A DNA stretch of 64,000 nt from assembly GCF_003991585.1 (NCBI RefSeq), contig NZ_PQSP01000002.1, forward strand, positions 388,420-452,419, given 5' to 3'. Every line of letters begins with the position of its first letter. Within the stretch, counting starts at the first letter, position 1. Of the stretch, positions 8,665-35,945 are shown piece after piece. This DNA is from Saezia sanguinis. GTDB lineage: Bacteria; Pseudomonadota; Gammaproteobacteria; Burkholderiales; Burkholderiaceae_C. The position numbers were made by a program, and so were the translations under genes. The notes under the pieces are model-generated. The model made no database searches, was not told the origin of the DNA, and saw only the letters and a program-made list of their open reading frames with translations.

Positions 8665-8670
8665 TAAACT

Positions 8671-11934: not shown

Positions 11935-12098
11935 TGTATGATGGTAAGCATTTATGGAGCGATGACACATGAGCGCAAAACCAGAATATGGGAATTGTGG
12001 CGGAAGGGCATTCCCATGAGTTTGATTGCTTGCGATATAGCAAATCCACTTGATCTGGCTTTGGTCTTGTTGTTGTTTCTTCTGCATCGATACATTCC

Positions 12099-13817: not shown

Positions 13818-13854
13818 TGTGTTTTTCTTTCCCTTTTGCGTACGCCGGGTCCGC

Positions 13855-14772
13855 TCAACTCATCTTGGTTATTGTTTCGGGCTGAACTATTTCTATGACC
13901 TGGAACGTCTTGGATGTGCTTCCCGCAAGGTGAAGCACTACCTCGTCGCCTATGACAGCCCCGAGTATTGCCTGTGCCAGAGGGCGGCTTTCATTCACAA
14001 TCCCGTTGGCAAAGTTATCTTTACCTCTGGTGATCTGGACAGTCATTACGTCGTTAGGACGAGCAAGATCGATGTATCGAACTACGTCACCTACCTCGAT
14101 TTCGAGGTCATCTTCTGTGTCGATCAGTACAGAGCTAATCGCTTCTCGCTCCCTCTCAGCTTGAACAGCGTTCGCAACCGATTCAATTTGCTGAGTCACC
14201 CGGGCAGTGAGTTGTCCAGCACCTTGTCCTTCTTCGATCCAGGCGTCTCCTGATGTGTGCTCGGGCTTCCAGCTCTCGCGCAAATACTCAAGGAAGTTGA
14301 TGAGCTTCTCGGTTTCTTGTCGTGGAGTGCAGAACCAGTCCGTTGACCAGATGCGCCAAATGCGACCACACCAGCCAAGAGCTTCAAGGATCTCTTGACG
14401 GATGCGGTCACGATCGGGAACTGACAAAGCAGAGTGGTAGGTTGCTCCGTCGCATTCGATTGCTGCCAGATACGATCCTGGCGCGTCTGGATGCTTGACG
14501 GCGATGTCAATGCGGTATCCCGCCACACCGAGCTGAGGGGTGACTTCATAGCCACGCATCTTGAGCATGTCCATGACGGAGATCTCGAAATCACTGTCTG
14601 GTTCGCGGTCTGTTTCCTCGATGGTCGGCAACGAGCCTGTGCGGGCGTACTCGAGGTAATTGCGCAGCGCCTTGGTGCCGTCCGGAGTAGTGCCATCCAT
14701 CACGATGTCTTCGGGACGAAGAGATGTGTACAGGGCGATTGACTTCTTGGCGCGGGTGAACAGCACGTTCAT
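13855..14772 (-). pseudogene. 3' remnant of a large SF1 helicase - Vsr-like endonuclease - DUF3320 gene (HheA-like architecture). Only the last ~305 codons are present.
   Basis: Begins at helicase motif VI (NVLFTRAKKSIALYTSL, AAA_12 end) immediately after an in-frame TAA. It then has a Vsr/DUF559-like block (IDIAVKHPDAPGSYLAAIECDGATYHS...DRDRIRQEILEALGWCGRIWRIWSTDWF) and a C-terminal DUF3320-like tail. No upstream helicase N-terminus is present; the integrase remnant abuts instead. Confidence 0.6.
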
Positions 14773-14837
14773 TTACTTGCTCCTGCGTCGCATCACGGGC
14801 GAAATACAGCAGTATCGCATAATTTACGGATAAGTTC

Positions 14838-15605
14838 TTAGTATGGGTCACAAAAGTCAGCCCACTCCTGCATCAGTAATCTGCGTTTTTGCAGCATATC
14901 ACCTCTTTGATAAGCCGCTTCAGCCTTATCTTTGAGTTTATGAGCCAAAGCATGCTCAATGACCTCTCTTGGATAGTGTGTTGTTTCCCCAGCCCAATCC
15001 CTGAAAGTTGACCTGAAGCCATGCATCGTAATACCCTGGTAATCCATTCGTTTAAGCACAGCAGTCAAAGACATATCCGATAAAGCCTTATTTGACCTTG
15101 GCGCAGGAAAAACAAAATCACATCCATCCAGTCGGGGGAGATGATTGAGAAGCCTCATTGCTTTGTCGCATAAAGGAATTCGGTGCTCTTTATCCATCTT
15201 CATACGCCTGGCAGGAATAATCCAAAGCTTTTCCTCAAAATCAATTTCACTCCATAATGCCCCACGGATTTCTCCAGAGCGCGCCACAGTCAAAATAGCA
15301 AATTCAACTGCACGGGCAGAAACACCTTCGCGTTGCTGCAAAAGCTTTATAAACTGTGGTATATCTCTATAATGTAATGCTTTGAAATGCTCAACCCGCT
15401 GAATTTTACTTCTGGCTGGCAACAGCTTATCCATGTGACCTTTCCAGCGCGCAGGGTTCTCGCCTGAGCGGTAATTGCGTGCTGCAGCCCAATCCAAAAT
15501 TAATTCAATACGGTTTCTAACCCGGGTAGCCGTCTCCGTTTTCTCTTGCCAGATAGGCTCCAAAATCTTGAGCAATAAAGGCGTATCTACTAAGTCAACA
15601 GGCAA
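14838..15605 (-). pseudogene. tyrosine recombinase/phage-type integrase, N-terminally truncated (catalytic domain only, TTG-initiated ORF)
   Basis: Catalytic-domain residues: R (TVARSGEIRG), HGFRSTFRDW and the Tyr in AEAAYQRGD. An in-frame stop lies only ~31 codons upstream of the called start. About 120 to 150 aa of the arm-binding/core-binding N-terminus expected for P4-type integrases is therefore missing. Confidence 0.6.
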
Positions 15606-21248: not shown

Positions 21249-21328
21249 GTTTTCAGTATAACAATTTAATGCCAGACTCTATTTTTCAACAGGTTATGAG
21301 TAGCAGTGCGTTTTTGCGTACAACCTGT

Positions 21329-21402
21329 TGGAGCGGGTGAAGGGAATCGAACCCTCGTCTAAAGCTTGGGAAGCTGCCGTTCTACCATTGAACTACACCC
21401 GC
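21329..21402 (-). tRNA. tRNA-Gly (anticodon CCC)
   Basis: Reverse complement reads GCGGGTGTAGTTCAATGGTAGAACGGCAGCTTCCCAAGCTTTAGACGAGGGTTCGATTCCCTTCACCCGCTCCA. This is near-identical in shape to E. coli glyU, with the anticodon loop UUCCCAA, a 7-bp acceptor stem and an encoded CCA. Confidence 0.85.
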
Positions 21403-21526
21403 TTAAAGTGAGCGCACCGCAAGAGGATGCGAGTGCACATTATAAGGAAAGAATTCTTTTTTTGCATGTATATGAGTAGCATGTGGTGCCAAAGAGCCTG
21501 TTTTGTCTTGTTAGCACTTGGCTGAT

Positions 21527-24500
21527 TCAGGCCAGGCGTTCCAAAATAGCATCTATTGCCACCTGCCGGTCCACAGTCCAGATGCCGTAACTCAATGGCA
21601 GCATTTCGAGGCCGGCACGGGCAAGTATCTGGTAGCGTTCTACGCCCAGGTAATCTTCTCCAGGGCCGGGGTAACCAATCAAGTCAATGGCCAGCATACG
21701 TTCGTCTTTCTGGCAAATCAGGTCAACGATCTGGCCTGCAATAAAAAAGTTTTTCCAGATGCAAATGCCATGAACCTCCAATGCATTGCAGACCTGCTGT
21801 TGGAATTCTGTATGTGGAGTGGCGTCAGGTTGCTGCAAAGCATAACCGGACTGAATGCTTTCCAGATACAGTCTCAACAGGTTATCTGGCGGCAGTGTAT
21901 TTTCATCGCCACTGAAAAGAACGATCTGCTGCTCGCGTGCACGTGTTACGGTCACATTAAACACATCAGGCCGGTTGAGGTAGTAGCTGGCACGCCGGCT
22001 TTCATTGTCCAGCGTAAAGCTCAGAATCATCAGGTCGCGTTCTTCTCCCTGGAAGCCATAGGGGGTGCCGACCAGAATTTTAAAGGCCAGAATGTTGTCT
22101 GCACTGATTTCGCGCATGAGATGCTGGCGGATTGCATCTACCTGGGCGCGAAATGGCGACAGGATGCCGATGCTGGGTTTGGTATCGGCATTCTGATAAG
22201 TATGGATATGTGCCTGTATCAGTTCAAGAGTGCGCTCTACTTCTGCCTGATTGACATTGGTGGATGAGCGTGCGCCTTCTATACGTTCCAGAATCAACGC
22301 GGGCGGTTTTTCTGCCATGCTTTCAGGCGATACCGGCCTTTCTTTCATGACCTTAATGCGGTTATTGTAGAAATGCCGGTTGCTGAATGCAATGAGTTCA
22401 GGGCGGGAGCGAAAGTGCTCATCCAGAAACGTGATGGCGTTGCTGTCTTTGATTTGTGCGTTCACCAGGTCCAGCAGGCTGTTATCACGGTAGCTCCATT
22501 TTTCAAATGTATCTGCAGGCAGGCCGGTTTGTTGAAAAGTGTGTTGTTCCAGTTGACGAGACAAAAATGAAATGTGCCGCAGTTGCTGATAGTCGCCAGT
22601 GACTACAGCACGTTTGCAGCGGAAAAAAGCAGGCAGTGCCGTGGCAATATCGCACTGTGTGGCTTCATCGACGATCAGCAGATCAAACAAATTAGGATGC
22701 AAGGGGAGTACCCGATGCAGGTCGTTGAAAGTCATGATCCATACAGGCAGTGCTTTAAGCATCAGGTGCCACTCTACATGTCCAATTCTCCAGTTTTTGT
22801 AGTCTGTTTCATTGAGTGATTCATCGTATCTCAGAAATTCTTCTCTATGCTCGTTCAGCAGTTTTTGCAGGGTGTCGTGGCGTTTAATGTTCAGGTAGTT
22901 TCGGCTGAGTATTTCACGCTGTTTTTGGCATGCAATCAGTTGGTCCAAAATCTGCCAGTGCTTGGTGCTGCTGCTGATTTTGCGGCGGACAAATGACATT
23001 TGCAATGTCCTTTTCCACCATGGGAGTTTTTTCTGTTCATTGGCAACAATCAGCTGACTTGTATGCAAAGCCAGCGTTCCTTTTTCGGTAAAAGCTTTGC
23101 GCAGGTTCAGCTCTTTTTGGGCACATTTTTTTAATTCATTTTCCACGGATCGGGTGGATGGTGCGGCTGTATTCGGTTCGGGGGCAGACAAATCTATTCT
23201 GGTAAAGAAGTTCAGCTTGTCTTTCAGGGCTGGAACCAGCGTTTTGTTGTAGCCGAAGTTCATGACGCCTTCTGCCAGACCCATGTCAGTGCACAGTTTA
23301 TCGGCAATTACGTTGGCAGCCTGTTCTGAGCCAGTCACAATCAGTACAGTTTCATCGTTGAGTATGCGATCCAGAGCCATGGCCGCAAGGGTATAGCTTT
23401 TGCCGGTTCCGGGTGGGCCGTTAATGATGCTTAAAGGGTATTGAATAGCGTTGTTTAAAGCATTGGCCTGTGCCTGGCTTAATAAAGCGGGTAAGGCATG
23501 AGGTCTGCTTTGTAGAATGGTGGGTGCAGGCGTTGGAAATAGCTGCTCGTTATGATGTTGAATGGAAAAAAGGAGATTCTCTCTATTCTGAACCTCACCC
23601 TTATTACTTGGTTTCTGATGTAGGCTCAGCAATGAGTTGATATATATTTGTTCAAGGAGATAGAGTCTTCTTGATAACAAGCGCCGGGCAATTTTTTGTG
23701 CAATCGGGAATAGTTCCGGTGCATTGGGGTGTTTTTCCTGACATGACACAAAGTATTCATAAAGCTGACGCAATGTGTAAGATGAATCATCAAAATAATA
23801 AGCAGGCATGCCCAGCAGGTTGTAGATTGCGTTGGAAAAACCCGCCTGTTTTGGCAGTTCATTGAGTTCATGCCGGATATTTTGGCTGATGCTTTTTTGT
23901 TTGACGTAGAACAACATGCCGCAGGAATATATTTTCAGATGGTTTTCCTGATCAGGGTTGTCTAAATGTCGTTGTTGGAGATTGGGCTCAAGAGCAGGGA
24001 AGCTGGCCGTGTGAATCACATACCTGATGGCAATGCCTGTTCTGATGGCAATGCCTGTTGCTTTGCGACGTAGGGCTTTTTTTTTGGACTTTCTGGAAAT
24101 TTTGGGGGCTGGTTCAGGCGTGACGGAAGCTGTAACTGTGCCGCCTGAGGTCAGGCCAAACACATGGTCAACATGGTTGGAGGACGTAAAGTAACAATAA
24201 GTTTTAAGCCATTCAGACAATTTTTCCAAATAGCTTCGGGTAATGCCTTCTGCGGGCGTGAGCGTTGGTGCTGTGCTGAGAACAGATGCATCATACTGTT
24301 CACGCAATATTCTTTTTAAAAGGCCTTTGTTGAGCACAGGCATGTGTGCATCAATACTCAAGGTATAAATATCTGTAACGTTATTGTGACCAACAATTGC
24401 TTCATAATAAATCAAAGGGCCTGCAACCCAATAAGGTTCGATTTGATTGCGGTATTGGTTGTATAGCTGTGTCTTTTTCTTTTCGTCACCGTTGGCCTGT

Positions 24501-24880
24501 TGTATCCAGGCCGGTGCGACATATCTGCCTTCGGCGTCACGAAAGCCGTGGATTAAATGTAACAACTCGAGTACCCGCGCATGAGGCGGATAGCCGCAGA
24601 TATAAAACAGGCCGTAGATTAGCTGAGTTTCATGGGCATATAAAGACATTTGGAGACAAAAAGATTTTCCTGTCTCCGTATCCAGCTCAACTGTGGGTGT
24701 AATGCACCTAGCTAATTGTTCTTGCCCTGAAAAAAAGTGAAATTCCTGAGGCTTGGTTTTATCCTGAAAATAGTTGTTCCCGGATTCATTGAGGACTTGG
24801 TCAAGCCTGAGTTCACGGTTTTCTATCTGATAACAGGTACGGTAAAACTGTGTAATGCGTTGGATAAATTCAGTGGGCAT
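21527..24880 (-). CDS. SF1 (Upf1/DNA2-like AAA_11/AAA_12) helicase with a C-terminal Vsr/DUF559-like endonuclease domain and an uncharacterised ~450-aa N-terminus (1117 aa)
   Basis: Walker A INGPPGTGKSYTLAAMA. Helicase motif VI NVTVTRAREQQIVLFS. C-terminal HTEFQQQVCNALEVHGICIWKNFFIAGQIVDLICQ...LAIDLIGYPG matches the Vsr-like fold. Confidence 0.75.
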   Translation of the reverse strand: MPTEFIQRITQFYRTCYQIENRELRLDQVLNESGNNYFQDKTKPQEFHFFSGQEQLARCITPTVELDTETGKSFCLQMSLYAHETQLIYGLFYICGYPPHARVLELLHLIHGFRDAEGRYVAPAWIQQANGDEKKKTQLYNQYRNQIEPYWVAGPLIYYEAIVGHNNVTDIYTLSIDAHMPVLNKGLLKRILREQYDASVLSTAPTLTPAEGITRSYLEKLSEWLKTYCYFTSSNHVDHVFGLTSGGTVTASVTPEPAPKISRKSKKKALRRKATGIAIRTGIAIRYVIHTASFPALEPNLQQRHLDNPDQENHLKIYSCGMLFYVKQKSISQNIRHELNELPKQAGFSNAIYNLLGMPAYYFDDSSYTLRQLYEYFVSCQEKHPNAPELFPIAQKIARRLLSRRLYLLEQIYINSLLSLHQKPSNKGEVQNRENLLFSIQHHNEQLFPTPAPTILQSRPHALPALLSQAQANALNNAIQYPLSIINGPPGTGKSYTLAAMALDRILNDETVLIVTGSEQAANVIADKLCTDMGLAEGVMNFGYNKTLVPALKDKLNFFTRIDLSAPEPNTAAPSTRSVENELKKCAQKELNLRKAFTEKGTLALHTSQLIVANEQKKLPWWKRTLQMSFVRRKISSSTKHWQILDQLIACQKQREILSRNYLNIKRHDTLQKLLNEHREEFLRYDESLNETDYKNWRIGHVEWHLMLKALPVWIMTFNDLHRVLPLHPNLFDLLIVDEATQCDIATALPAFFRCKRAVVTGDYQQLRHISFLSRQLEQHTFQQTGLPADTFEKWSYRDNSLLDLVNAQIKDSNAITFLDEHFRSRPELIAFSNRHFYNNRIKVMKERPVSPESMAEKPPALILERIEGARSSTNVNQAEVERTLELIQAHIHTYQNADTKPSIGILSPFRAQVDAIRQHLMREISADNILAFKILVGTPYGFQGEERDLMILSFTLDNESRRASYYLNRPDVFNVTVTRAREQQIVLFSGDENTLPPDNLLRLYLESIQSGYALQQPDATPHTEFQQQVCNALEVHGICIWKNFFIAGQIVDLICQKDERMLAIDLIGYPGPGEDYLGVERYQILARAGLEMLPLSYGIWTVDRQVAIDAILERLA
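24024..24059. repeat. perfect in-frame 18-bp tandem duplication (ctgatggcaatgcctgtt x2) inside the helicase-nuclease CDS
   Basis: Read directly. On the coding strand it duplicates the hexapeptide TGIAIR (…KATGIAIRTGIAIRYV…). Confidence 0.85.
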
Positions 24881-24925
24881 AGGTTCAGGTTTGACAAATG
24901 CAGAAGTTTTGGCAAAGCACTTCCG

Positions 24926-25486
24926 TTAGGCGCGTTTTTTTCGGTAAATCCAGGCTGTCAGTGTGCCACAGATTACTCCGGCCAGATGGTATTCGATGGA
25001 TACGCCTTCTTTGGGAAGTAGCCCCAGCCATAGCCCGCCGTACAACAGCAATACGATCAGACCGATGACGATGTTGGCGATATTGCGTTGAAAAAAAGCG
25101 CGCGCAATCAACCATGCCCATAAACCAAACAGCCAGCCACTGGCGCCGGCATGGATGCTGTTGCGGCCAAATATCCAGACCAGCAGACCACTGCCCAGGA
25201 TAATCCATACGCTGGCGTGTATAAAGCGTTTGGGTGAGTCCCACATGGCCAGCAGGCTGAAAAGCAGCAGGACCGGCAGGTTGGACCACAGATGCATCCA
25301 GCTGTTATGCAGCCAGGGCGAAAGGATAATACCGGGCAGGCCGCTGAGGTGCCTGGGCCAAAGGCCAAAATCACGTGCCAATATGCCGCCCATGGTGGCA
25401 TTGATGGCTTGCAGCACAATCATCAGTGCCGCTATGGTGAAAAGTATCAGCAGCCGTTTTTCCCACTGGGCTTTACTTGCGGTCAT
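24926..25486 (-). CDS. rhomboid-family intramembrane serine protease (186 aa)
   Basis: Six TM helices, GxSG catalytic motif IHAGASGWLFGL and catalytic His in EYHLAGVICG. The start overlaps the 3' end of the upstream giant gene by 14 nt. Confidence 0.8.
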   Translation of the reverse strand: MTASKAQWEKRLLILFTIAALMIVLQAINATMGGILARDFGLWPRHLSGLPGIILSPWLHNSWMHLWSNLPVLLLFSLLAMWDSPKRFIHASVWIILGSGLLVWIFGRNSIHAGASGWLFGLWAWLIARAFFQRNIANIVIGLIVLLLYGGLWLGLLPKEGVSIEYHLAGVICGTLTAWIYRKKRA

Positions 25487-28400
25487 AGTAATCGCTGGTG
25501 TCGCTGTCTTTCATGGTTTCGATCACCTGTGTGTGTCCCATGAGTGTTGCCAGTTTACGTAAACCATTGGTCAGGTTCACAATGTTTTTCTGTGAGCGCA
25601 GATCTACTTCCAGCTTTTTATCCATCAGCTTCATGACAGGAATAAAGCTCTTCTCCAGTGTGCTTGCCATACCTTGCAGAATTTCGGCCACGCCGGGCTG
25701 GGGCTGGGTCGAAAGGTTCACCGACACATTGGGCGGGGCAGGAGGCTGCTCGAGTTTTTCGAGCTGATCAAAAATCTGCTGCCATGGAATTTGCAGGGGC
25801 GGTGTATCCGGCTTGTTTTCAACAAACTGGGCAAAGCCCTGGAATTCATTGACTAGGTCATTCAACTGAGCCACAACCCGCATGCCGGTATCGGCATCGT
25901 CACCACCCATGGCCTTGATCCGCAGGAAGTCCTGCCTGATCTGCTCCCAGCGTTGCTGTTGTTCTTCGGTCATGCGACCGCGCAGTTCAGAGAGTTTCAG
26001 CAGGTTTTCTTCAGCGCCGGTGGTGAGCAACTGGGCTTCGCCCTGGTAGTGGTCGTTAATGACCTGGGCAATTTCGCCTTCGTTCATGATGGCAGAGATT
26101 TTTTCTGCCATTTTGTTCATGTTGCGGTAGCTGCCCTGCAGTCTGAATGGCGGCTCTGTGCGGTATTTATCGGCCTGTGCAGCGCTGGCAATGTATTGCT
26201 GGTTGACTTTGAGCACCACTTCGCGAATGGTGAACATGCGTTGCAGGGTGCCGACAATTTCATTGATTTCTGCTGCACTGTAGCTGTAGCTGAACTCGTT
26301 GTTGGAAATTTCTTTGCCATCGGCCTTGTCAACAAAGCGGTACACATCGGCCATGTCACGGGTTGCCAAAGGTGCCAGCACGGCATTGGATGTGAGCGAG
26401 TTTTCAATATAGCTCAGTGCAAATGCCTCTTGCATGCCGCCCAGTGTTTCACCCAGGTTATAAATATCGGCACGGTTGGCGAGCATGTCCGGTATTTTGA
26501 ACACTTCGCCTGATTCTGTATAAGGGTTGCCGGCCATGACAACGCAGAACCGGCGCGCGCGCATGTCGTAGGTTTTGGTACGGCCTTTCCATACGCCTTC
26601 GATGCGGCGGGTGCCGTCACACAGTGAAATGAATTTTTGTAAAAACTCCGCATTGGTGTGCTGTATGTCATCGACATACAGCATGACGTTGTTGCCCATT
26701 TCAAGCGCCAGGTTGAGCTTTTCGAGCTCCTGGCGTGATGTGGCGTCAGGTGCCTGGGCCGGGTCCAGTGAGTGAACACGGTGGCCCAATGACGGGCCGT
26801 TGATTTTCATGAAAATCAGCCCCAGCCGGTGCGCCACGTATTCCATCAGCGTGGTTTTGCCATAGCCGGGCGGGGAGATTAGCATCAGCAGGCCCATCAG
26901 GTCAGAGCGTTTGCTCTCCCCGACCGTTCCCATCTGCTTGGCGAGGTTGTCGCCGATAACAGGCAGGTAGACGTCATTGATCAGGCGGTTGCGGACAAAA
27001 GATGTCAGTGGCCTGGGTTTAAACTCCTCCAGCCGCAATGATTCGCGTTCCTGGGCAATGATGTTTTGCCGCAGCAACTGATAGCGGTTCAGTGCCGGCA
27101 GGAATACTTCTGTGTGCTGGCGTACCCGTGCAAAAAAATCATCCACGGATAAATGCATCTGCTGGTTTTCAATGCGCGGGTGTGTACCCATCAGGTCTTT
27201 GACGGTAAAGCGCAGATCCGTTTCGGTAAAGCGCAGCGGGAAGTCTTCGGTCAGCAAAAATAAAACGATGGCTTCCGGAATGTAGCCGGCAATGGCATTC
27301 AGGTTTTGGCTTTCATCAGCCTGACATAAGCCTTGCAGCGCGTTTTCAACCTGCCCCCATTGGGCGTCAGGTCGTTCTCCCAGGCGTTGCAGTGCTTGGC
27401 GGAAGTCATCCCACATGCGCTCGCCCTGCAGGCGCAGTTGCAGGGCGTCCTGCAGTTGTTTGCCGTATTTGCTGAAGGTAAATTCCACACGGTCGGCTGC
27501 CAGAGCCTGCACCAGGTAATCAGCCGCTTCATGTGCGACGGACTGGTCGTAAGAAAGGCCGGTTTTGTCAAACCAGTCCTGTATGGACTGTGCAATTTCC
27601 TGCCGCAACGCAGTGATGCCCTGCGCACGGCCAAACAATAGTTGAATGGATTTGCTGGCGCGTGCGCGTTCTATCCACAAAGCGCTGGCTTCTTCATTGG
27701 CGCGGGTATATTGCCAGAACAGACCGGCCAATGCCCGTGGCAATGGCGAGTAGCGCAGCAACCCGGCACTTTCGGCCAAGGGTAGCAACTGCAAAAGGAG
27801 CAGGGTTGCGTCATGGTCGTGAATGCCTTTTTCGTAGCCTTCTTTGTAACGCGGCGTGGCAAAGTCGCGCACGGTTTTGCCCAGCACATCGGGTTGTGCC
27901 AGCTGGGTTTTGAGCAGGTTCAGTGACAAACCTTCCTGCTGCTGGCTGGCTGCTTTCAGAATTTGCGCCGCCAGATATTCACCGCGGTAAAGCTGCGGGG
28001 TTTCCGATTCGATCGATATTTGCCAGTAATCCCGCAGGTTTTCAAGCTCTGGATTGTTCAGCGGTTCAAAATAGTCGGTACCGGTCAGGTGGATGCATAA
28101 ATGGTTGTCACGCGGCAGCAGGGTCAGGTCCAGCTCCTGCGTATTGACGCTGAAGCGGTGCCTGGGGCCCAGTTTAATGACATTGCCGCCATCTTCAAAC
28201 AGTTCGGTTTTGTCGCGCAATGAGCGCAATGCCTGATCGCGTGCGCTTTTTAAGCGGGCTTCGACGTCATCGGCACGCACACTGTCATGCAGTTCACGCA
28301 GACGGGATACCAGTTCGCGCAGTTTTAAAATCAGAGGATCCGATGCAAAGAATGCATTCATTTCTTCCGGTTTGTTCAGGCGCGCGGTGCGGCGTGGCAA

Positions 28401-30863
28401 TGTATCGAGAATACGGCGGGCGGCATCCTGCACGTTTTGTGCTTTACGCTGACGCTCGTCCAGCAGAGACTGTTTGTGAGACTCAAATGTCTCAAGCACT
28501 TCTTCGCGTTTGGCGAGAATGTCTCCCAGAAATTCTTCATGATCACCGAACTGGCCTTCCAGTTCTTCAAGCTGTACCAGCAGGCGCGATAACTGGTCAT
28601 CGCATTTTTCAGGGTCTTGTGAGAGCGCCAGGGCGTTGACAATGCTCTGGCTGAAAAGGCTGAACTGGGCACCAAACTGCGCTACGGTTTCCGCCGAACC
28701 CAGGCCTTTACGGCGTTGTTCCGCGCGTGCTTTGCTTTGGTTGAGCTTGGCATATACCTCGGAGATGGCCTCGATGATGTGTGTGCGCTGCGTTGCATCT
28801 TCAATCTGGAGTGTGCCCATCAGGCTGGTGAGCATATCCAGGTCATTGGCCATGCTTTGCATGGCTGCCATCGGGATTGACAAGGCGTTGACGGTTTTAG
28901 CCTTCTGTGCCTGTGCGTCCAGTTCCTGCAACTGCGTGGTGAAAGGCAGCAGCGCCGTATCACTGGCTAAAAAGGTGGCGGTGGCTGCTGCCGTGCGCTC
29001 CTGTGCGGCCAGCAGATCGGTTTCCATCTGGTCGATGACAGCGGTATCTATATAGCGGTAGTCACGTATGGTCAGCAGCAGGCCACGCTGAGCGGTAATG
29101 TCGTTCAACGCACCCACATACTGCTGAACGTTGTCCCATCCTTCGGGCAGCAGCAGGTTCAGCAGGTTTTTCTGCTTAGCCTGCGCATCAGCCAGTGCCT
29201 GCGCTGACTGGCTGCGAATGCTTTCAACTTTTTCATATTCGTCCAGCACCATTTCAGCGGTGGCGGTGATTTCGCGCAACAGTGCTGGCAGTTGCTTAAG
29301 CTGCGCATCGCCCAGCCAGTGATAGGCGTCAAACAGGCGGCGTACATGCTGGCACAGCATGGAGTAACGTTGCACAGAGACGGAAGGGGAGGCAATTTCA
29401 CGGCAGAGTTCGTAAAAGTCAGAAATACCACGAACCAGTTCTGCATTACCTACCCGGCCAAAGAAACCGTTACGGGCCGGCTGGCGTGCAGCGTACTCTT
29501 CAGAGTAAAACGGCGTTTGCCAGATTTGCATCGGGTGGATACGTGTCGGTTCATTGCCTTCAGAGTGGAAAATGACCATGCGGCCGTCTTCCAGCCTGGC
29601 ATAACCGTGTCCCAGAACCGGCGGCTCCAGTTGGCGGCTGATGACGTCGTAGGTGAGCAGAACGGAATTGCCTACTTCCGGGTCGTAAAAAATGTACAGC
29701 ACATCTTCGCCGTTGGGCGAGCGTACAGTGCGTTTGAAGCGCATGCCCAACATGGGGATGTCAAACGTTTTGAATTCGCCGTTTTGCAGATAGTACCCAC
29801 CCGGAAAGATAATGCCATGGTCTTCCGGCAGTTGAATACACGCCAGCCCCAGCGCATCTACGCGTGCGATTTTCTGATTCAGCTTGTTGTAAATGTAATG
29901 GCGCCATTGCTGCTCACGGTAGGGCAGGATTTTAAGCAGCAGCAAAGAGCCCAGTTCGGCAAATTCAACCCGCAGGTCGCCAAGCGCCTGGTTTTCGTCT
30001 TCTACTTTTTCCGTGAAGATAATCTGCCCATCGGGGGTGTTGTTTTCAATTTTGAAGGTGAGTGTGCCGCGCCGTTGTTCAATGAACAGGGTGTTGGCAA
30101 TGTTCATATACAGCCTTCGGGCTGTATCGATGATCATCTCGCGCGTGGTGTGAAGCCATTCAAAATCATAAGGGGCGGGCAGCGCAATATCGCGGTCGCC
30201 CCGGTTATCAATGTACTGAATTTGGCTGCTGTCGCCATTGGCAGGCAGTGCCCAGCGGAATACGCGGATATCGGTGTAGCGCTCGCCGATCTGGAAACTG
30301 GCCAGCAGCTTGTTGTCCCGTACCATCAACTGCAGCAGCTTGGTGTCTTTGTAATAAGTGTAAAGTTCGTTGAAGTCTGCAATGAAGCGTGGATGGGTCA
30401 GAAAGCTGCCTTCAGCCGGGCAGGCCTCTACATCGTAGCCTTCTTCTGTTTCTACCAGGCGATACAGGGAGAATACGTCGGAGATGGCGGTTTCTTTTTT
30501 CAGCCCGATAAATACGTTGTAACCAAACAGCAGAAAATCACCAACGCGGACAATGTCGCGTGCGATGCAGTTGTTTTCGGTGCGGATGCGTACCCGTCCG
30601 ATGACTTCCATGTGGCTGTCGCCAAACTCTTTGAGGCGATGCTCATTGAGTTTTTGCGTGATGTCCTTGAGCCGCAGCCCCTGGTCCTGCAGGCGCCGGT
30701 TAAGTACTTCGTAAGCGCCGCCTTCGGCGACGGCTTTATCCACCATATCCTGAGCATCTGGAGTTTCAGCTGGCATGTCTGTCATGTCGATATTCCTGCA
30801 AGTGAGCTCTTCATACCGGTAGAACAAATGCCGCTTGACTGCAAGCGGCCTGATGAAAGGCAA
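25473..30863 (-). CDS. giant (~1770-1796 aa) uncharacterised protein with a C-terminal MoxR/AAA_5-like ATPase module and a long coiled-coil-rich N-terminal region
   Basis: Walker A LISPPGYGKTTLMEYVA, Walker B NNVMLYVDDIQH, sensor VVMAGNPYTE and Arg-finger region LANRADIYNLGE near aa 1290-1500. Upstream are ~1200 aa of helical/coiled-coil sequence with no recognisable family. The likely true start is ATG at 30785, preceded by AGGAA; the ORF-track start is TTG at 30863. Confidence 0.7.
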   Translation of the reverse strand: MPFIRPLAVKRHLFYRYEELTCRNIDMTDMPAETPDAQDMVDKAVAEGGAYEVLNRRLQDQGLRLKDITQKLNEHRLKEFGDSHMEVIGRVRIRTENNCIARDIVRVGDFLLFGYNVFIGLKKETAISDVFSLYRLVETEEGYDVEACPAEGSFLTHPRFIADFNELYTYYKDTKLLQLMVRDNKLLASFQIGERYTDIRVFRWALPANGDSSQIQYIDNRGDRDIALPAPYDFEWLHTTREMIIDTARRLYMNIANTLFIEQRRGTLTFKIENNTPDGQIIFTEKVEDENQALGDLRVEFAELGSLLLLKILPYREQQWRHYIYNKLNQKIARVDALGLACIQLPEDHGIIFPGGYYLQNGEFKTFDIPMLGMRFKRTVRSPNGEDVLYIFYDPEVGNSVLLTYDVISRQLEPPVLGHGYARLEDGRMVIFHSEGNEPTRIHPMQIWQTPFYSEEYAARQPARNGFFGRVGNAELVRGISDFYELCREIASPSVSVQRYSMLCQHVRRLFDAYHWLGDAQLKQLPALLREITATAEMVLDEYEKVESIRSQSAQALADAQAKQKNLLNLLLPEGWDNVQQYVGALNDITAQRGLLLTIRDYRYIDTAVIDQMETDLLAAQERTAAATATFLASDTALLPFTTQLQELDAQAQKAKTVNALSIPMAAMQSMANDLDMLTSLMGTLQIEDATQRTHIIEAISEVYAKLNQSKARAEQRRKGLGSAETVAQFGAQFSLFSQSIVNALALSQDPEKCDDQLSRLLVQLEELEGQFGDHEEFLGDILAKREEVLETFESHKQSLLDERQRKAQNVQDAARRILDTLPRRTARLNKPEEMNAFFASDPLILKLRELVSRLRELHDSVRADDVEARLKSARDQALRSLRDKTELFEDGGNVIKLGPRHRFSVNTQELDLTLLPRDNHLCIHLTGTDYFEPLNNPELENLRDYWQISIESETPQLYRGEYLAAQILKAASQQQEGLSLNLLKTQLAQPDVLGKTVRDFATPRYKEGYEKGIHDHDATLLLLQLLPLAESAGLLRYSPLPRALAGLFWQYTRANEEASALWIERARASKSIQLLFGRAQGITALRQEIAQSIQDWFDKTGLSYDQSVAHEAADYLVQALAADRVEFTFSKYGKQLQDALQLRLQGERMWDDFRQALQRLGERPDAQWGQVENALQGLCQADESQNLNAIAGYIPEAIVLFLLTEDFPLRFTETDLRFTVKDLMGTHPRIENQQMHLSVDDFFARVRQHTEVFLPALNRYQLLRQNIIAQERESLRLEEFKPRPLTSFVRNRLINDVYLPVIGDNLAKQMGTVGESKRSDLMGLLMLISPPGYGKTTLMEYVAHRLGLIFMKINGPSLGHRVHSLDPAQAPDATSRQELEKLNLALEMGNNVMLYVDDIQHTNAEFLQKFISLCDGTRRIEGVWKGRTKTYDMRARRFCVVMAGNPYTESGEVFKIPDMLANRADIYNLGETLGGMQEAFALSYIENSLTSNAVLAPLATRDMADVYRFVDKADGKEISNNEFSYSYSAAEINEIVGTLQRMFTIREVVLKVNQQYIASAAQADKYRTEPPFRLQGSYRNMNKMAEKISAIMNEGEIAQVINDHYQGEAQLLTTGAEENLLKLSELRGRMTEEQQQRWEQIRQDFLRIKAMGGDDADTGMRVVAQLNDLVNEFQGFAQFVENKPDTPPLQIPWQQIFDQLEKLEQPPAPPNVSVNLSTQPQPGVAEILQGMASTLEKSFIPVMKLMDKKLEVDLRSQKNIVNLTNGLRKLATLMGHTQVIETMKDSDTSDYYDRK

Positions 30864-30970
30864 TGGCCTGTCATATCACTGTCCCGGCATTGGTCGTATC
30901 TATACGCTTTGCTGGCGCGGTGCAGCAGCAAAAGCGTTTGCTTTGTTTGCTGCACCGTGTGCACGGGAGA

Positions 30971-33031
30971 TTACTGGTCTTTGGGTGACACAGGCAGATC
31001 GCCAATGACGCTGCCAGTGTTGCCACCTTTACCACTGAGCAGCCTGGTCAGCAGGTCCTGTACCAGCGGGCTCTTCCCAACCACGCCTTCAATGGATTTG
31101 CCAATGGAAAGAGACTTGGCAAACGCATTGAAATAGTCGCCACCGCCGCCCACCAGTTCAACCTTGGCCTTGGACAGCGCTGCGGCCAGCACTTCGGCCT
31201 GTTCTTTGGCGATTTCTTTGTTGGCAGCAATAGCGGCCATGGCTTCGTCAAAGTCTTTTTCAAGCTGCATGCGGAATTCTTCGTGCGCGCGGGTGTTGTC
31301 GGTAAGGGTGTCCATGGCATGGAATTTCTTGGCCAGACCTTCCGATTCGGAATTGAGGCGGTCCAGCAGTGCCTGTGCTTCTGCGGTGCCCAGTTCTTTC
31401 GTGGCTCTGGCTTTGGCAATACCCAGTTGTTCTTCGCCGCGTGCCTGTGCAAACAGTTTTTCTTCCAGCACTTTGGCTTCAGCCAGACCATCTTTTTCTT
31501 TGGCAGCGGCTTTGGCTTCTATGACACGGGCTTCTGCCATGCCTTTTTCCTGCTCGCCCTTGGCTTCGGCAATGATCAGTTCTGCCTGCACCTTGGCCGT
31601 TGCCAGGCCGTCTTTTTCTTTAGCTGCTGCGGTGACTTCCAGCACACGGGCATCGGCCAGGCCGGGGGCAGCACGTTCAGCTTCCACACCCTGTGCCATA
31701 CGGATCTTGGCTTCGGCCTGCTTGGCGGCTGCTTCCAGTTCAGCCTGAGCCATGGTGTTGATTTCAACGGCTTTGTGTTTGGAACGTTCTTCATCAGCCT
31801 GCGCTTTTTTCACCTGCTGCACCAGTTCCTGTTCAGCAATGGCTTCTGCTTCCAGAATAGCGACCTGTTTGTTCCGGTCGGCCTCGGAGACAACACGTAC
31901 TTCTTTGATGCGCTCTTCTTCCTGAGCTACGGTTTTATCCACAGCGACACGTTCACGAATGACGTTGGCAATGTTTTTGCGTTCTTCTTCAAGTGCCTTT
32001 TCTTTGTCAATGCGTTGCAGTTCCACATCGCGTTCGCGTGCAACAACTTCCAGATCACGGGCACGGGTGACTTTTTCAACTTCAATGACAACGGCACGCT
32101 GGCGGTTTTGTTCGGCAATTTCAACTTCGCGCTGCTGGTTTTGCAGGCGCACGTCAATCTGTTCCTGGGCGGCAATGCGGGCTTCTTCCGAACGCAGGCG
32201 CTGCTGTTCTTTGACCAACTGGGTTTCAGCTTCTTCACGCGCCTGGGTGCTTTCAATTTCACGCTTTTGCTGCGCTTCGGCAACGGCCTGTTGGCGGTCC
32301 AGCGCCAGTGATTTTTCTTTGGCCTCGACGTTTTCTTTCTGTTTGGTCAGCTCTTCATAGCGCTGAATGCGGTTGGTTTCAATGCTTTCTTTGGCTGTGC
32401 GGTCGGTAATTTTACGGATACCTTCGGAATCCATGATGTTGTTGGGATCCAGGAATTCAACTTTAGTTTGCTCCAGGTAGTCAATTGCAACATCTTCCAG
32501 CACATAGCCATTGAGGCCTTCGATGACGATTTTGATTTCGTCGCGGAATTGCAGCCGTTTTTCAAACAGTTCTTCCAGGTTGAATTTTTTCCCGGCGGTT
32601 TTTAATGCTTCGGAAAATTTGGCGTTGAAGAGCTGATCCAGCGCACGGTGGTCAGAGGCACGCTCCACACCAACCGACTGTGCAACCTGCAGCACATCCT
32701 CCGAGGTTTTGTTCACGCGCATATAAAATGAAACGCTGATGTCTGCACGCAGATTGTCTTTACAGATCAGCCCGTCTTTGCCCCGGCGTTCAATTTGCAG
32801 GGTGACCAGGGAGATTTTCATCAATTCCTTGATATGCAGCACAGGGAAGACGAACGACCCGGTAAAACTGACTTTAGGTTGTCTGTGCATCAGACCGTTT
32901 CTGATCAAAGCCGTGCCTTGCGGTACTTTGGTGTAAAAAGCTTTGAGTACTGCAAATATAACCAAAATGAAAACGACAAGAGAGACAAGTACCACCCCAA
33001 TTGTCGTGATGAGCGTGCCAGTAACATTCAT
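30971..33031 (-). CDS. flotillin / SPFH (band-7) family protein with long Glu/Ala/Lys-rich coiled coil (YqiK/FloT-like, 686 aa)
   Basis: N-terminal TM helix plus SPFH domain (FYTKVPQGTALIRNG...ISLVTLQIERRGKDGLICKDNLRADISVSFYMRV). This is followed by an ~350-aa EA-rich coiled coil. Confidence 0.85.
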   Translation of the reverse strand: MNVTGTLITTIGVVLVSLVVFILVIFAVLKAFYTKVPQGTALIRNGLMHRQPKVSFTGSFVFPVLHIKELMKISLVTLQIERRGKDGLICKDNLRADISVSFYMRVNKTSEDVLQVAQSVGVERASDHRALDQLFNAKFSEALKTAGKKFNLEELFEKRLQFRDEIKIVIEGLNGYVLEDVAIDYLEQTKVEFLDPNNIMDSEGIRKITDRTAKESIETNRIQRYEELTKQKENVEAKEKSLALDRQQAVAEAQQKREIESTQAREEAETQLVKEQQRLRSEEARIAAQEQIDVRLQNQQREVEIAEQNRQRAVVIEVEKVTRARDLEVVARERDVELQRIDKEKALEEERKNIANVIRERVAVDKTVAQEEERIKEVRVVSEADRNKQVAILEAEAIAEQELVQQVKKAQADEERSKHKAVEINTMAQAELEAAAKQAEAKIRMAQGVEAERAAPGLADARVLEVTAAAKEKDGLATAKVQAELIIAEAKGEQEKGMAEARVIEAKAAAKEKDGLAEAKVLEEKLFAQARGEEQLGIAKARATKELGTAEAQALLDRLNSESEGLAKKFHAMDTLTDNTRAHEEFRMQLEKDFDEAMAAIAANKEIAKEQAEVLAAALSKAKVELVGGGGDYFNAFAKSLSIGKSIEGVVGKSPLVQDLLTRLLSGKGGNTGSVIGDLPVSPKDQ

Positions 33032-33086
33032 GCCTGATATCCCCTTAAAAGCAAATAAACCCAGAACAGTTTTTGTGATGAATTAT

Positions 33087-33758
33087 TCAATAGCCTTTAA
33101 ATTCATCTTCGCTGATGACCCGATAGGTTCTTGAATCTTCCAGATATTCGATTAAAACAACCCGATCACCGCGTTTGATCCCTTTTGATGCGTCGGCAAC
33201 AATATCCAATATCATCCCAGCTTCACCATCATTTAACACCGCTTCTCCAAAACGCTCGTTCACGTAAGAACTGCGAACGGTGACGGTTTGACCAAGGAAT
33301 GAGCGGTTGGACGGCGCATCCTGGTTTTTAAACACGATTCTGCGCAGCGGTTTGCATACCTGCGCAGTGAGCCAGACCGAGGCCGCAAATGCAGCAATGA
33401 AGACAACGATGCCGGCTGGATAGTAGATGATAGCGATATGAATATGACTCAGCAGCAAAGCCTGAGCGATGTAGGAGACCATCCATCCAAAAAGCGACAA
33501 CAGGGAGACAACCAGCGTAATCGGAATACCATTAAGGCCAAAGCGCGACAGGAAGCCTACCGCCTCTCCGGTTGTGTGCATCCCATGGTCAAGGTGGCTA
33601 CCGACATCTCCGGCGTCTATGTCCAAACCCCCGGCATCCCCTGCATCAACGTCAAACAAGCCAAAAATAGTCAGCAACCCGAGTATCAGTGACAAGCACA
33701 GGAAGAAAGTAAAGATGACCGTTGGAAACAACAGAAAATTTGCAAAAAATGCAGCCAT
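33087..33758 (-). CDS. NfeD-like (YqiJ/DUF1449-type) membrane protein with C-terminal OB-fold-like soluble domain
   Basis: N-terminal polytopic membrane region, an acidic Asp/Gly loop and a C-terminal beta-rich domain (GQTVTVRSSYVNERFGEAVLNDGEAGMILDIVAD...RVVLIEY). It sits in the canonical partner position immediately upstream of flotillin, as in E. coli yqiJK. Confidence 0.6.
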   Translation of the reverse strand: MAAFFANFLLFPTVIFTFFLCLSLILGLLTIFGLFDVDAGDAGGLDIDAGDVGSHLDHGMHTTGEAVGFLSRFGLNGIPITLVVSLLSLFGWMVSYIAQALLLSHIHIAIIYYPAGIVVFIAAFAASVWLTAQVCKPLRRIVFKNQDAPSNRSFLGQTVTVRSSYVNERFGEAVLNDGEAGMILDIVADASKGIKRGDRVVLIEYLEDSRTYRVISEDEFKGY

Positions 33759-33862
33759 TAACCTTTCTCCTTTGCTTTTATAGTATGCCCCAAAGGGGAG
33801 CTTGCTTCCTTGATGGCTGTATGCCAGGTGCGGCAGTAAGCGGCACCTGGCTCAATCGCAGT

Positions 33863-34558
33863 TTATGAATCGGCCTTTTCCTTCAAGCGGGCCAATACGT
33901 TGGCAGCGCTGTGTTCTTCAGGAATAATGCCCGCAGTGCGCAGCTTGTTTTCCAGCAGCGTGTCCTGATCTTCCTGGGCAGCCAGCTCGTTGCTTGCGTC
34001 GATTTTTGCTGCACGCTCAGCCTGTCTTTTCTTGATGCGCTCCAGCGATTCCAGTGCCGTGTGCATTTTGGCCTGCGAGCCGCCATAACGTTGAGAAACC
34101 GCCATCTGTGCTTTTTGTACGTTTTCGGTTGCCCGTACGGTATCAGCCTGCTGCTTCACACGTTTGATGTGCGTTTCTATTTGAGAGACAGCGCGGCGCA
34201 GTTGCTCAACGCTGCGGGCATAGCCGCCAGCCTGCGTCTGGGATTCTGAGAGTCCGATTTCCAGATTGGCGATTTTCCCAGCAACCTCTTTGGCCAGCTC
34301 TTCATTGTTGGCTTCCAGCGCTTTCAGGGCATACTGCTCGTATTCGGCGATTTTGTCCTCAATTTTTTTGACATCGGCATCGGCCAGCTTCTGCTTGGCC
34401 ATGATTTCCGCCAGTGCTTCCTTGGAACGGCGCAGTTCCTCGTCTGCATCACGAATTTCCTGATCCAGGATGCGCAGTGCCTGGCTGTCAACGATGGATT
34501 CACCCATTTCGTGGGCTCCGCCGCGTAACGCCGTGATCATTTTGCTCCAGATACTCAT
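33863..34558 (-). CDS. PspA/IM30 (phage-shock protein A / Vipp1 / YjfJ) family protein (231 aa)
   Basis: MSIWSKMITALRGGAHEMGESIVDSQALRILDQEIRDADEELRRSKEALAEIMA is the typical PspA N-terminal amphipathic helix. The protein is coiled-coil throughout. Confidence 0.8.
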   Translation of the reverse strand: MSIWSKMITALRGGAHEMGESIVDSQALRILDQEIRDADEELRRSKEALAEIMAKQKLADADVKKIEDKIAEYEQYALKALEANNEELAKEVAGKIANLEIGLSESQTQAGGYARSVEQLRRAVSQIETHIKRVKQQADTVRATENVQKAQMAVSQRYGGSQAKMHTALESLERIKKRQAERAAKIDASNELAAQEDQDTLLENKLRTAGIIPEEHSAANVLARLKEKADS

Positions 34559-34579
34559 TTCATTTCTCCTTGATAAGGC

Positions 34580-35203
34580 TCAGACGCTCTCTTTAAGATG
34601 GTCTTGGTAGGCTTCAGTGGCCTTGATGATATTGTCAGCCAGCACTTCAATTTCCAGCACCACGTTTTCCAGTTTGGAAGTCGCGCTCAAGGCGCCAAAC
34701 ATGGTGTAGTAACTGGGACCTTCTGGCGGTGTTTCCAATGCAATGCTCGACAGGGGAAACAGTTTGTGCGTGCGCAAAATGGCGTCGTTAAATTTAACAA
34801 CGTCTTTGACATCGTCCGTAGACCACAGGGTGCCTTCAATGACAATCTGATCACCCGAGACCGCAACAAACAAGGGTAACTCGCCATAATCATGCATCTC
34901 AATGTGCAGACTCGAATCCGCTCCTTGCAGCAACTCTACGGCAGCACGCCCTTCTGCGAACAGGGGGGTGGTTGCCAAAGCCGCATATAGCGAATTTGCA
35001 GTCCAGACCTGAGGTGTTGTATTCATCCCATTCTCCTTTTCTGTGAGCACTGCCCCAGATTGAGGCAAGCGTAATTGACGCTCAATATGGCTCAGTGCCT
35101 TCGCATGCTCCGGCAATATCCATATCTCCTTTTTTACCAAACCTTGCTCACGCAGGCGTTGTCTGTAAAGGCGCTGGTAGTAGGCAGAAGATTTGCTTTT
35201 CAT
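34580..35203 (-). CDS. YjfI-like (DUF2170-type) protein; first gene of the PspA-flotillin operon
   Basis: It lies directly upstream of the PspA paralogue, as yjfI-yjfJ do in E. coli. An internal ATG at 35026 (MNTTPQVW…) is preceded by a strong AAAAGGAGAATGGG Shine-Dalgarno and would give a 149-aa product of DUF2170-like size. The first 59 codons may be an extension or a leader. Confidence 0.45.
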   Translation of the reverse strand: MKSKSSAYYQRLYRQRLREQGLVKKEIWILPEHAKALSHIERQLRLPQSGAVLTEKENGMNTTPQVWTANSLYAALATTPLFAEGRAAVELLQGADSSLHIEMHDYGELPLFVAVSGDQIVIEGTLWSTDDVKDVVKFNDAILRTHKLFPLSSIALETPPEGPSYYTMFGALSATSKLENVVLEIEVLADNIIKATEAYQDHLKESV

Positions 35204-35945
35204 ATGCGTATATTAACCTCATGTTAGTAACATGTCAATAAATGACATGTGTAATTCAGGTGTGTTTGTGGAAAAGATACAATAGAAGATACAACTTACA
35301 TAGCAGACATATTAACTGAAAAATTCTTACATGTTTAAACATTAATGTAAGCCAATTTCACGATAGATGATAATTAATTGGGAAAAAGCCAAATAAGACA
35401 CATTTTTTGATGGCATTTTGCCTGAATAAAGTATGCGTGATGGCACTGGCGTATGTATTCAAAATGAATTGGTCTTGTTTTTATCTGTGAAGATACTGAA
35501 ATTTTGGAATTGACATGTTATTTGTCTGTGTGAGAACGGCAGGCCACAAAAAGCGGCTGGCACCTGAAAGGTGCAGCAAACGGTATGAATACTTCAACGG
35601 ACTGCAAATCCAAGGCGTGGTATGGGTAAAAAAGAGTGAAAAAACAATGCTCCTATCAGGTGTATTTGCCTTTATTTTCTGCAACTGAAATAAAAATTAT
35701 TTTTATCTGAAGTTGTTGATATTTGAGCAGTTTTTCGTAGCAACCGCTCCGCAGCGCTTGTCAAATAGGGTAAAACCCCTGCACGATGCAAATACCCTGG
35801 TGATACACTCGCTTTCGTGTCAGCATTTGCTGCTGTTTGTGTTTTTGAACAAACCAACTCAGGCATTGACACTAAAAGTATTAAAAATGAGATGGGTTGA
35901 GGCCAGACTCAATCTGACCCCCTAATAATTCAACTGAGGTATCAG

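Follow-up and report, generated by a model that had tools for sequence, protein, structure and literature searches.

Gene content and layout of the locus

The window analysed here is a stretch of 64,000 nucleotides from Saezia sanguinis (Burkholderiales, Betaproteobacteria). Between cyoA and a tRNA-Gly(CCC) gene, it carries an array of seven co-directional minus-strand open reading frames (ORFs); exact-sequence look-ups gave the locus tags CUZ56_01229 to 01234. This array is a rhomboid-bearing variant of a known operon, called bac in Pseudomonas aeruginosa, and not a new system. The genes are listed below in their order of reading, followed by the spacer and flanking elements.

34580..35203, minus strand: bacA-like gene, 207 amino acids (aa), DUF2170/YjfI family with a CesT/Tir-like chaperone fold
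33863..34558, minus strand: bacB-like gene, 231 aa, PspA/IM30 (ESCRT-III superfamily)
33087..33758, minus strand: bacC-like gene, 223 aa, short NfeD of the YqiJ/YuaF type with three transmembrane (TM) segments and a C-terminal beta domain
30971..33031, minus strand: bacD-like gene, 686 aa, flotillin family, YqiK-like
25473..30785, minus strand: bacE-like giant ATPase gene, 1770 aa (ORF as listed 25473-30863)
24926..25486, minus strand: rhomboid gene, 186 aa, minimal six-TM intramembrane serine protease
21527..24880, minus strand: helicase gene, the seventh and facultative gene, 1117 aa, Upf1-like SF1B
30830..30957, minus strand: two hairpins in the flotillin-giant spacer, candidate attenuator or mRNA-end element
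35204..35945, minus strand: upstream intergenic region of 742 nt, common to the array and the divergent cyoA, in which the array promoter presumably lies
21329..21402, minus strand: tRNA-Gly(CCC), found by ARAGORN and Rfam, a boundary marker outside the system

An ORF check confirmed the seven genes at the coordinates given in a preliminary description of this DNA, which had been made from the sequence alone, and the spacings given there agree within 1 nt. In the order of genes one to seven, the successive junctions are gaps of 21, 104, 55 and 185 nt, an overlap of 14 nt and a gap of 45 nt, and the array ends 124 nt from the tRNA-Gly(ccc). For the giant gene, the ATG at 30785, which an AGGA ribosome-binding site precedes by 8 nt, was preferred over the listed TTG at 30863. 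This start yields the protein of 1770 aa and the spacer of 185 nt after the flotillin gene, which is the spacer length of the preliminary description. The genes cyoA and cyoB are divergent and lie on the far side of the array from the tRNA.

Correspondence to the published operon and conservation

The bac cluster of P. aeruginosa (PA3732-PA3729) was described in 2008 in PLoS One, and its PspA-like, osmotic-shock-induced protein PA3731 was found to be needed for virulence, biofilm formation, swarming and rhamnolipids (PMC2587700). A 2024 study in Front Microbiol widened the cluster by reverse-transcription PCR (RT-PCR) to six co-transcribed genes, bacABCDEF (PA3732-PA3727), reported a crystal structure and assigned negative control to BacA (PMC10948618). 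When bacA is mutated, the levels of BacB to BacF rise (PMC10948618). An operon class combining a CesT/Tir-PspA module with band-7/flotillin, YqiJ/YuaF and a novel AAA+ protein was described by Ravi et al. (mSystems 2024, PMC11237479; bioRxiv 2020). The orthologues of the flotillin and NfeD genes were named PaFlo3 and 'short NfeD' (PA14_16160) in a 2026 paper (PMC13086221). The suggestion of the preliminary description that no system of this composition had been described is therefore not tenable, since the five-gene core and a sixth hydrolase gene had already been published. Its reading of the array as a membrane-remodelling or envelope-stress machine, on the other hand, fits both Ravi et al. 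(PMC11237479) and the P. aeruginosa bac literature.

Genes one to five are 55, 63, 40, 72 and 68% identical to their P. paraeruginosa counterparts. A genome scan with the giant protein returned 513 species-level loci, of which the best 80 were examined and the 67 with full flanks were counted; homologues of the giant protein form >5300 clusters. Synteny was seen in the 80 examined loci. Among those counted, the NfeD, flotillin and giant genes occur together in 67/67, the PspA gene in 58/67 and the bacA-like gene in 56/67. Dozens of genomes share this gene order, which makes a chance arrangement very unlikely.

The proteins most similar to the Saezia giant protein (74-78% identical) are three and come from Neisseria sp. 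Ec49-e6-T10 and two metagenome contigs. All three loci consist of exactly six genes, encoding BacA, PspA, NfeD, flotillin, giant ATPase and rhomboid, without PLD or helicase. As these three relatives have three different chromosomal contexts, the six genes appear to be a mobile, self-contained cassette. In Pseudomonas, the operon is found at one conserved locus beside yaeQ and recJ.

The 3' end of the operon carries other accessory genes in some lineages. In the Xenorhabdus loci (L039-L041, L050, L053), a LemA-family gene is found there, and BacA-PspA are missing. A TFIIB-type zinc-ribbon protein of 180 aa is encoded in Cellvibrio, Hahella and relatives, and a GGDEF protein in some Pseudomonas loci. 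The loci of these variable 3' accessory genes also include L059, L060, L067, L070, L071, L073 and L075-L078.

Families of the five core proteins

Domain searches were made against Pfam, NCBIfam, PDB sequences and the PADLOC models, and hhalign was used for profile-profile comparison. The BacA-like protein matches Pfam DUF2170 (E 5e-49) and the NCBIfam model NF050185, 'biofilm formation regulator BacA', with 318 bits against an equivalog cut-off of 300 bits. Its residues 63-205 match PDB 8q8o (E 5e-41). This entry is a crystal structure of the DUF2170 family that names no organism and which we take to be the P. aeruginosa BacA of Wallart et al.

The conserved, basic N-terminal extension of BacA (~47-60 aa) is not present in E. 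coli YjfI. Residues 1-47 (35063-35203; KSSAxYQRxYRQRLREQGLVKKEVWILPEH...) are near-invariant from Pseudomonas to Neisseria, as compared in L013, L018, L048, L059, L073, L076 and L087-L089. Neither the crystallised protein of 146 aa (PDB 8q8o) nor the '16 kDa' annotation of PA3732 includes this segment. The segment has a helix-strand-helix-like character, and a Pfam search with the peptide gave sub-threshold MazE-like matches only. Judged from these features, the segment may be a DNA-binding module explaining the negative control of the operon by BacA.

The PspA_IM30 gene lies directly downstream of the DUF2170 gene with a gap of 21 nt. Its product matches PspA_IM30 over residues 2-228 (E 1e-51) and Vipp1/PspA structures in the PDB (E 3e-6 to 8e-4), and is 53-71% identical to the product of the gene at the same position in 58/67 loci.

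Searches of Pfam, NCBIfam and PDB with the flotillin and NfeD proteins, both with the single sequences and with profiles, gave no match. Profiles were built from 26 orthologues and aligned by hhalign to E. coli YqiK and YqiJ. The flotillin profile (A1) matched YqiK with a probability of 99.9% (E 2e-33, 405 columns), and the NfeD profile (A2) matched YqiJ with a probability of 91.5% (E 9e-7). In the NfeD orthologue alignment (A2), the TM segments, a loop of acidic residues and conservation of the C-terminal domain can be seen. These matches show that the flotillin and NfeD identities read from the sequence in the preliminary description were right. Its other gene identities are supported as well. 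The flotillin has an N-terminal TM segment, an SPFH/band-7 domain and a long Ala/Glu-rich coiled coil, carries the NCBI name YqiK/flotillin family and shares 72% identity with its BacD orthologue in P. paraeruginosa. Its gene contains internal periodic repeats of 54-66 nt. The joining of a yjfI-yjfJ-like and a yqiJ-yqiK-like module to a giant AAA+ protein, proposed earlier, is thus supported.

The giant protein matches Pfam DUF3686 (E 9e-183), DUF7902 and AAA_5. AAA_5 reaches 26.8 bits (gathering score, 22), and the AAA family is matched with a similar 26.1 bits. The protein begins with helices and a beta-propeller, to which DUF3686 corresponds. Helical bundles, DUF7902 among them, and an extended helical region in the middle lead to an AAA+ module, whose Walker A lies near residue 1307, and the protein ends in further helices. 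It belongs to a named family, DUF3686/BacE, but one that is biochemically uncharacterised. In the AlphaFold2 (AF2) model of residues 1-760 (predicted local distance difference test, pLDDT, 82.8), the N-terminal helices are followed by a beta-rich part (60-423) and helical bundles. The 'huge coiled-coil' N-terminus proposed before is consequently an incomplete description, as a propeller at ~60-423 precedes the helical bundles.

Foldseek matched the beta domain to the propellers of Elp1, IFT-A subunits, nucleoporins, prolyl oligopeptidase, paraoxonase and clathrin heavy chain (E 1e-7 to 2e-5). The order of a propeller followed by helical repeats in residues 1-760 (28506-30785) is also that of the top Foldseek matches (IFT-A, clathrin heavy chain, nucleoporins), all of the membrane-coat type. 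This likeness is only a lead, because the TM-scores are low (~0.14-0.18).

A model of residues 1180-1770 reached a pLDDT of 62.9 and gave generic AAA+ matches in Foldseek, with NorQ (MoxR family), RuvB and MCM among the best and ClpB also present. An assignment of the AAA+ clade by fold was dropped, since this C-terminal model was too weak. A MoxR-like motif, AGNPYTESGEVFKIPDMLANRADIY, can be read in the protein sequence and in our view resembles the sensor-1/Arg-finger region of MoxR proteins (N-P...G...P...(D/N)R). The MoxR/AAA_5 type given to the module in the preliminary description is plausible, but not established.

Rhomboid and PLD at the sixth position

The rhomboid protein matches Pfam Rhomboid (E 6e-18), and its motifs HxxxxHxxxN (HNSWMHLWSN), GASG and the TM6 histidine (YHLAG) are intact. 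The catalytic dyad is accordingly complete, and an active protease is predicted. The start of the rhomboid gene overlaps the end of the giant gene by 14 nt, and in the three closest relatives it overlaps the giant stop by 17-20 nt, an arrangement from which translational coupling to the giant ATPase gene is predicted.

A rhomboid gene directly 3' of the giant gene is present in 45/67 loci and is the commonest sixth gene. A single-HKD PLD (229 aa) occurs in 43/67, and both occur together in 33/67. In many Pseudomonas loci, the PLD stands at this position beside or instead of the rhomboid, and the sixth gene of P. paraeruginosa (bacF) encodes such a protein. The Saezia array contains no PLD (HKD) gene, and the rhomboid holds the sixth place. 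An apparent 426-aa rhomboid-PLD fusion in two loci (L028, L029) proved to be an ORF-calling artefact in high-GC DNA and was resolved into two separate genes. The published operon description lists the PLD as optional (PMC11237479), and the word 'rhomboid' is found neither in Ravi et al. or one supplement of that paper (PMC11237479) nor in the bac papers. As far as the literature searched extends, the frequent membership of a rhomboid is new.

Regulatory elements

In the upstream region (35204-35945), no sigma-54 -24/-12 element was found at <=2 mismatches. The best GG-N10-GC candidate upstream of bacA is mismatched at 9/11 positions, and the same scan of related Pseudomonas loci gave no strong sigma-54 consensus. 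A sigma-70-like TTGACA-17-TAATAT sequence at 35238-35210 is too near the ATG to be convincing.

The spacer between the flotillin and giant genes contains two hairpins. The first has 18-nt arms and lies just past the flotillin stop (30957-30918), while the second is a GC hairpin (30849-30830) followed by the T-rich ATTTGTTCT. A stable hairpin right after the flotillin stop is kept in position in most of 61 loci from Gamma- and Betaproteobacteria, with a T-rich tail in 25. This positional conservation suggests two expression tiers, brought about by partial termination or by stabilisation of the transcript end. Classic terminator shapes at this hairpin were observed in Xenorhabdus, L055 and L058. 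That the array forms one transcription unit is plausible by analogy with the read-through found by RT-PCR in P. aeruginosa.

No match to the PspB/PspC sensors or the PspF enhancer-binding protein was found among the seven proteins or in the cyoA/B and Ada/Ogt flanks. On this gene content, the array would not be counted as a member of the classical Psp system (pspF-pspABCDE).

The helicase gene

The seventh protein matches Pfam AAA_11 and AAA_12 and, among PDB sequences, Nam7, Sen1, IGHMBP2 and DNA2 (E 3e-17 to 9e-7). Its helicase core is flanked by an N-terminal region specific to the lineage and by a C-terminal domain of a divergent DUF559/MTES_1575 (Vsr-like) type. The Vsr nuclease tail of the preliminary description stands in so far as the domain can be aligned to canonical DUF559/MTES_1575 members, but it scores only 17.2 bits with MTES_1575 against a cut-off of 38.2 bits, and it has 'IDLIG' where 'IECDG' is canonical and 'FQ' in place of 'FE'. 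Because of the sub-cut-off score and the altered 'IECDG' motif, nuclease activity of the helicase is uncertain.

An exact tandem duplication of 18 nt (24024-24059) in the gene doubles the peptide TGIAIR and accounts for the length of 1117 aa compared to 1111 aa in the closest relative, P0001. The idea that an extra ~200 aa of the Saezia helicase stem from a fused PLD gene was rejected, as BLASTP against the PLD protein showed no similarity. An exact-sequence look-up of the helicase and a metagenome scan in which this one protein was the query gave no match.

A helicase at the 3' end of the operon was found in only 9/67 loci, in addition to L096 and Saezia. It is a facultative add-on and not required for the system. 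The 3'-end orthologues are 43-49% identical to the Saezia protein and come from Ectopseudomonas, Pseudomonas sp. L004 and L006, and P. alcaligenes. In the Pseudomonas loci, the helicase gene follows the PLD gene, at times overlapping it; in P. alcaligenes, a gap of 297 nt precedes it. The pair was observed to overlap by ~27 nt in places (L004, 15868-19274; L018, L037, L042, L045; L096, 9014-12730). This pairing resembles Mokosh (a PLD nuclease with a COG1112 helicase), yet it ends a membrane-stress operon.

Pairwise identities of the helicase and of the giant protein are correlated with r = 0.99 over 55 pairs, which indicates that the helicase has diverged in step with its hosts and is no recent replacement, as would be expected of a mobile defence gene. 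These comparisons suggest that it has long travelled with the operon in some lineages, and a functional link is a candidate only.

Proposed function of the array

We consider it likely that the array is the Saezia copy of a 'bac'-type PspA system, an inner-membrane stress and remodelling operon, for which the following mechanism is proposed. BacA, a CesT/YbjN-like chaperone-regulator, would hold BacB in check, repress the operon via its basic N-terminus, or both. Upon membrane damage, BacB, a membrane-binding PspA polymer of the ESCRT-III fold, would polymerise on the inner leaflet, and BacC and BacD would form an SPFH cage or microdomain at the damage site. BacE could dock there by its propeller and helical arms and use ATP to assemble, remodel or recycle the polymers, a Vps4-like role filled by a non-Vps4 ATPase. 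The rhomboid, by protein cleavage, and the PLD, by cleavage of lipid or nucleic-acid phosphodiesters, would act within the microdomain. Their target may be a TM-anchored protein of the complex, for example BacC or BacD, which would thereby be released or inactivated, in parallel to NfeD-ClpP/stomatin and PARL-SLP2-YME1L. The hairpin after bacD probably sets the scaffold to high and the motor to low expression.

Several observations speak against this interpretation. To our knowledge, BacC, BacD, BacE and BacF have no known biochemical function in any organism, and no substrate has been identified for the rhomboid. The clade assignment of the giant ATPase is based on one motif and weak matches, because its AAA+ model is of low confidence, and its Walker B is DD and not DE. 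MoxR-class ATPases normally partner VWA proteins, and in the Pfam search a VWA domain was absent from all seven proteins. Regulation may differ from P. aeruginosa, since the sigma-54 promoter proposed there was not found in the window. The presence of the same helicase family at the operon 3' end in beta- and gammaproteobacteria could be a real functional link that is underrated here. Finally, deletion of paFlo3 reduced biofilm formation by only ~20% (PMC13086221).

Alternative explanations

One alternative is that the helicase is fully independent of the operon, with its own promoter, an unrelated housekeeping role in RNA or DNA metabolism and an incidental position. Stand-alone orthologues exist: in P. 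fulva and Pseudomonas sp. PA27 the gene lies beside a flp/tad pilus locus, away from the operon, and relatives with 34-37% identity occur in unrelated stable contexts in Verrucomicrobiales and elsewhere. The 297-nt gap in P. alcaligenes also fits this explanation, as do the lower GC content overall and at third codon positions (GC/GC3) of 0.47/0.50, compared to 0.54/0.63-0.65 for the giant and rhomboid genes, and the lack of a Shine-Dalgarno sequence before the helicase ATG. However, the gene starts 45 nt from the rhomboid gene, and this junction contains no convincing terminator or promoter. The overlap with the PLD gene in several Pseudomonas loci and the recurrence of the same family at the same operon end in Betaproteobacteria and several Pseudomonas lineages also speak against an incidental position. 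Full independence is therefore doubtful, and the helicase is probably co-transcribed with, or read through from, the operon.

Another explanation, hinted at in the preliminary description by its comparison with sensor/effector antiphage systems, is that all seven genes form one Zorya-like antiphage system, in which the membrane module senses envelope damage by phages and licenses the helicase-nuclease. In the PADLOC and NCBIfam searches, the helicase core matches MkoC (E 3e-50) and Hhe (E 5e-18) and also PDC-S37, MkoA and ProA. In Pseudomonas, the PLD gene directly precedes and overlaps the helicase gene like the Mokosh pairing, and the helicase recurs at the operon end in distant lineages. 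In addition, a genuine defence island lies ~6 kb off, and a 2025 study found PA3728-PA3732 to be up in all phage-infected P. aeruginosa samples (PMC12041424).

Nevertheless, the MkoC match is confined to the helicase core (profile positions 542-945 of 1136), and the NCBIfam scores (ProA, 109 vs 1500 bits; Hhe, 74.8 vs 2000) fall short of the cut-offs by a factor of 10-25. The helicase has a non-canonical nuclease motif, and DUF4011 was not found in it by Pfam. None of the six core proteins has a meaningful PADLOC match; PspA has weak coiled-coil matches only (E > 1e-4, LmuB/JetC-type). The helicase is limited to 9/67 loci, is missing from the three closest relatives and has orthologues standing alone in stable contexts that are not islands. 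Furthermore, the conserved position of the Pseudomonas operon (yaeQ, recJ) is unlike that of mobile defence islands, the island near the Saezia array is missing from the 97%-identical relative L081, and phage induction is typical of any Psp system. The literature search found no paper tying the bac operon to antiphage defence, and the word 'helicase' does not occur in the text of Ravi et al. or one supplement (PMC11237479). A seven-gene antiphage system is thus improbable.

In a broader version of this idea, rhomboid, PLD and helicase-nuclease would be interchangeable output arms of a membrane-damage sensor made of PspA, flotillin, NfeD and a coat-like ATPase. In helicase-bearing variants, this sensor would couple a disturbance of the envelope, such as that caused by phage entry or lysis proteins, to an attack on nucleic acids. 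If true, membrane-triggered immunity of a new class would have arisen from a Psp system, but we rate this as a long shot.

The weakest explanation is a DNA-repair module in which the giant ATPase works with the helicase-nuclease next to repair genes: DUF3686 is named 'ATPase involved in DNA repair' in Pfam and 'DNA repair ATPase' by NCBI, the giant protein has weak RuvB P-loop matches, and ada and ogt adjoin the tRNA here while recJ is downstream in Pseudomonas, but the repair name is an inherited annotation without experiment (DUF3686 is unmentioned in the literature searched), the giant gene is tied to flotillin and NfeD membrane proteins and not to DNA enzymes in 67/67 loci, the RuvB matches span only ~45 residues around the P-loop, and both flanks are lineage-specific, making this explanation very improbable.

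Compared to these alternatives, an inner-membrane stress and remodelling operon places the helicase and the antiphage flavour at the periphery of the array. The bac-type operon is widespread and linked to biofilm, virulence and the response to phage infection in P. aeruginosa. We know of no component beyond BacA with a known molecular role. The rhomboid, as the commonest, coupled and co-travelling sixth gene, points to regulated intramembrane proteolysis in an SPFH microdomain.

Neighbouring features

The tRNA-Gly(CCC) gene has its own TATAAT-like element upstream. A tRNA beside the operon was found at 0/25 other loci, except for the Saezia relative L081, and the adjacency is Saezia-specific. 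The tRNA was rejected as an integration site of the array, because the array lies 5' of it and the other loci, again except L081, have no tRNA there. A 10-nt direct repeat, GCTACTCATA, flanks the tRNA at ~21469-21478 and 21294-21303 and may be due to chance or be an old attachment-site scar.

The conflict/defence island of the window extends over 595-15605 and is low in GC in the 8-12 kb and 15-16 kb stretches. It comprises the following genes.

595-8664: 2689-aa two-partner secretion (TPS)/filamentous-haemagglutinin (CdiA-like) protein with a C-terminal BURPS668_1122-type deaminase toxin
9274-11697: SIR2 + STAND NTPase
12099-13817: GmrSD type IV restriction enzyme
13855-14772: MTES_1575 restriction endonuclease (REase) + GreA/B-C protein
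14838-15605: tyrosine integrase

In L081, tRNA-Ser and serS are found where Saezia has this island.

Comparison with known systems

The helicase shares an Upf1-like SF1 core and a putative nuclease-fold partner domain with Mokosh (MkoA/MkoB, MkoC) and Hhe, and in Pseudomonas also an adjacent PLD. However, only the helicase core aligns, the Saezia window has neither a PLD in the array nor DUF4011, and the contexts are not defence islands.

The mitochondrial PARL-SLP2-YME1L (SPY) complex and the archaeal NfeD(ClpP)-stomatin pairs are cases of a protease acting inside an SPFH microdomain. The array resembles the SPY complex in combining an SPFH scaffold, a membrane protease and an AAA+ machine. 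This is a functional analogy only, as the presumed MoxR-class BacE and the FtsH-class YME1L ATPases are without homology.

Pfam and hhalign show the Saezia modules to be homologous to yjfI-yjfJ and yqiJ-yqiK of E. coli. In E. coli, these modules are located at two separate loci without a giant ATPase or a rhomboid, and the N-terminal extension of BacA is extra in Saezia.

The closest counterpart with experimental data is P. aeruginosa bacABCDEF (Mace 2008, Wallart 2024). Genes one to five are orthologous and in the same order, and a small hydrolase gene follows the giant gene in both. In Saezia, this sixth gene encodes a rhomboid instead of a PLD, the helicase is appended, no sigma-54 element was found upstream, and the operon resides in a betaproteobacterial host in another chromosomal context. 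Genes one to five of the Saezia array also match the operon class of Ravi et al. The optional member in that paper is the PLD (HKD), whereas in the loci surveyed here the rhomboid is the more frequent one (45/67).

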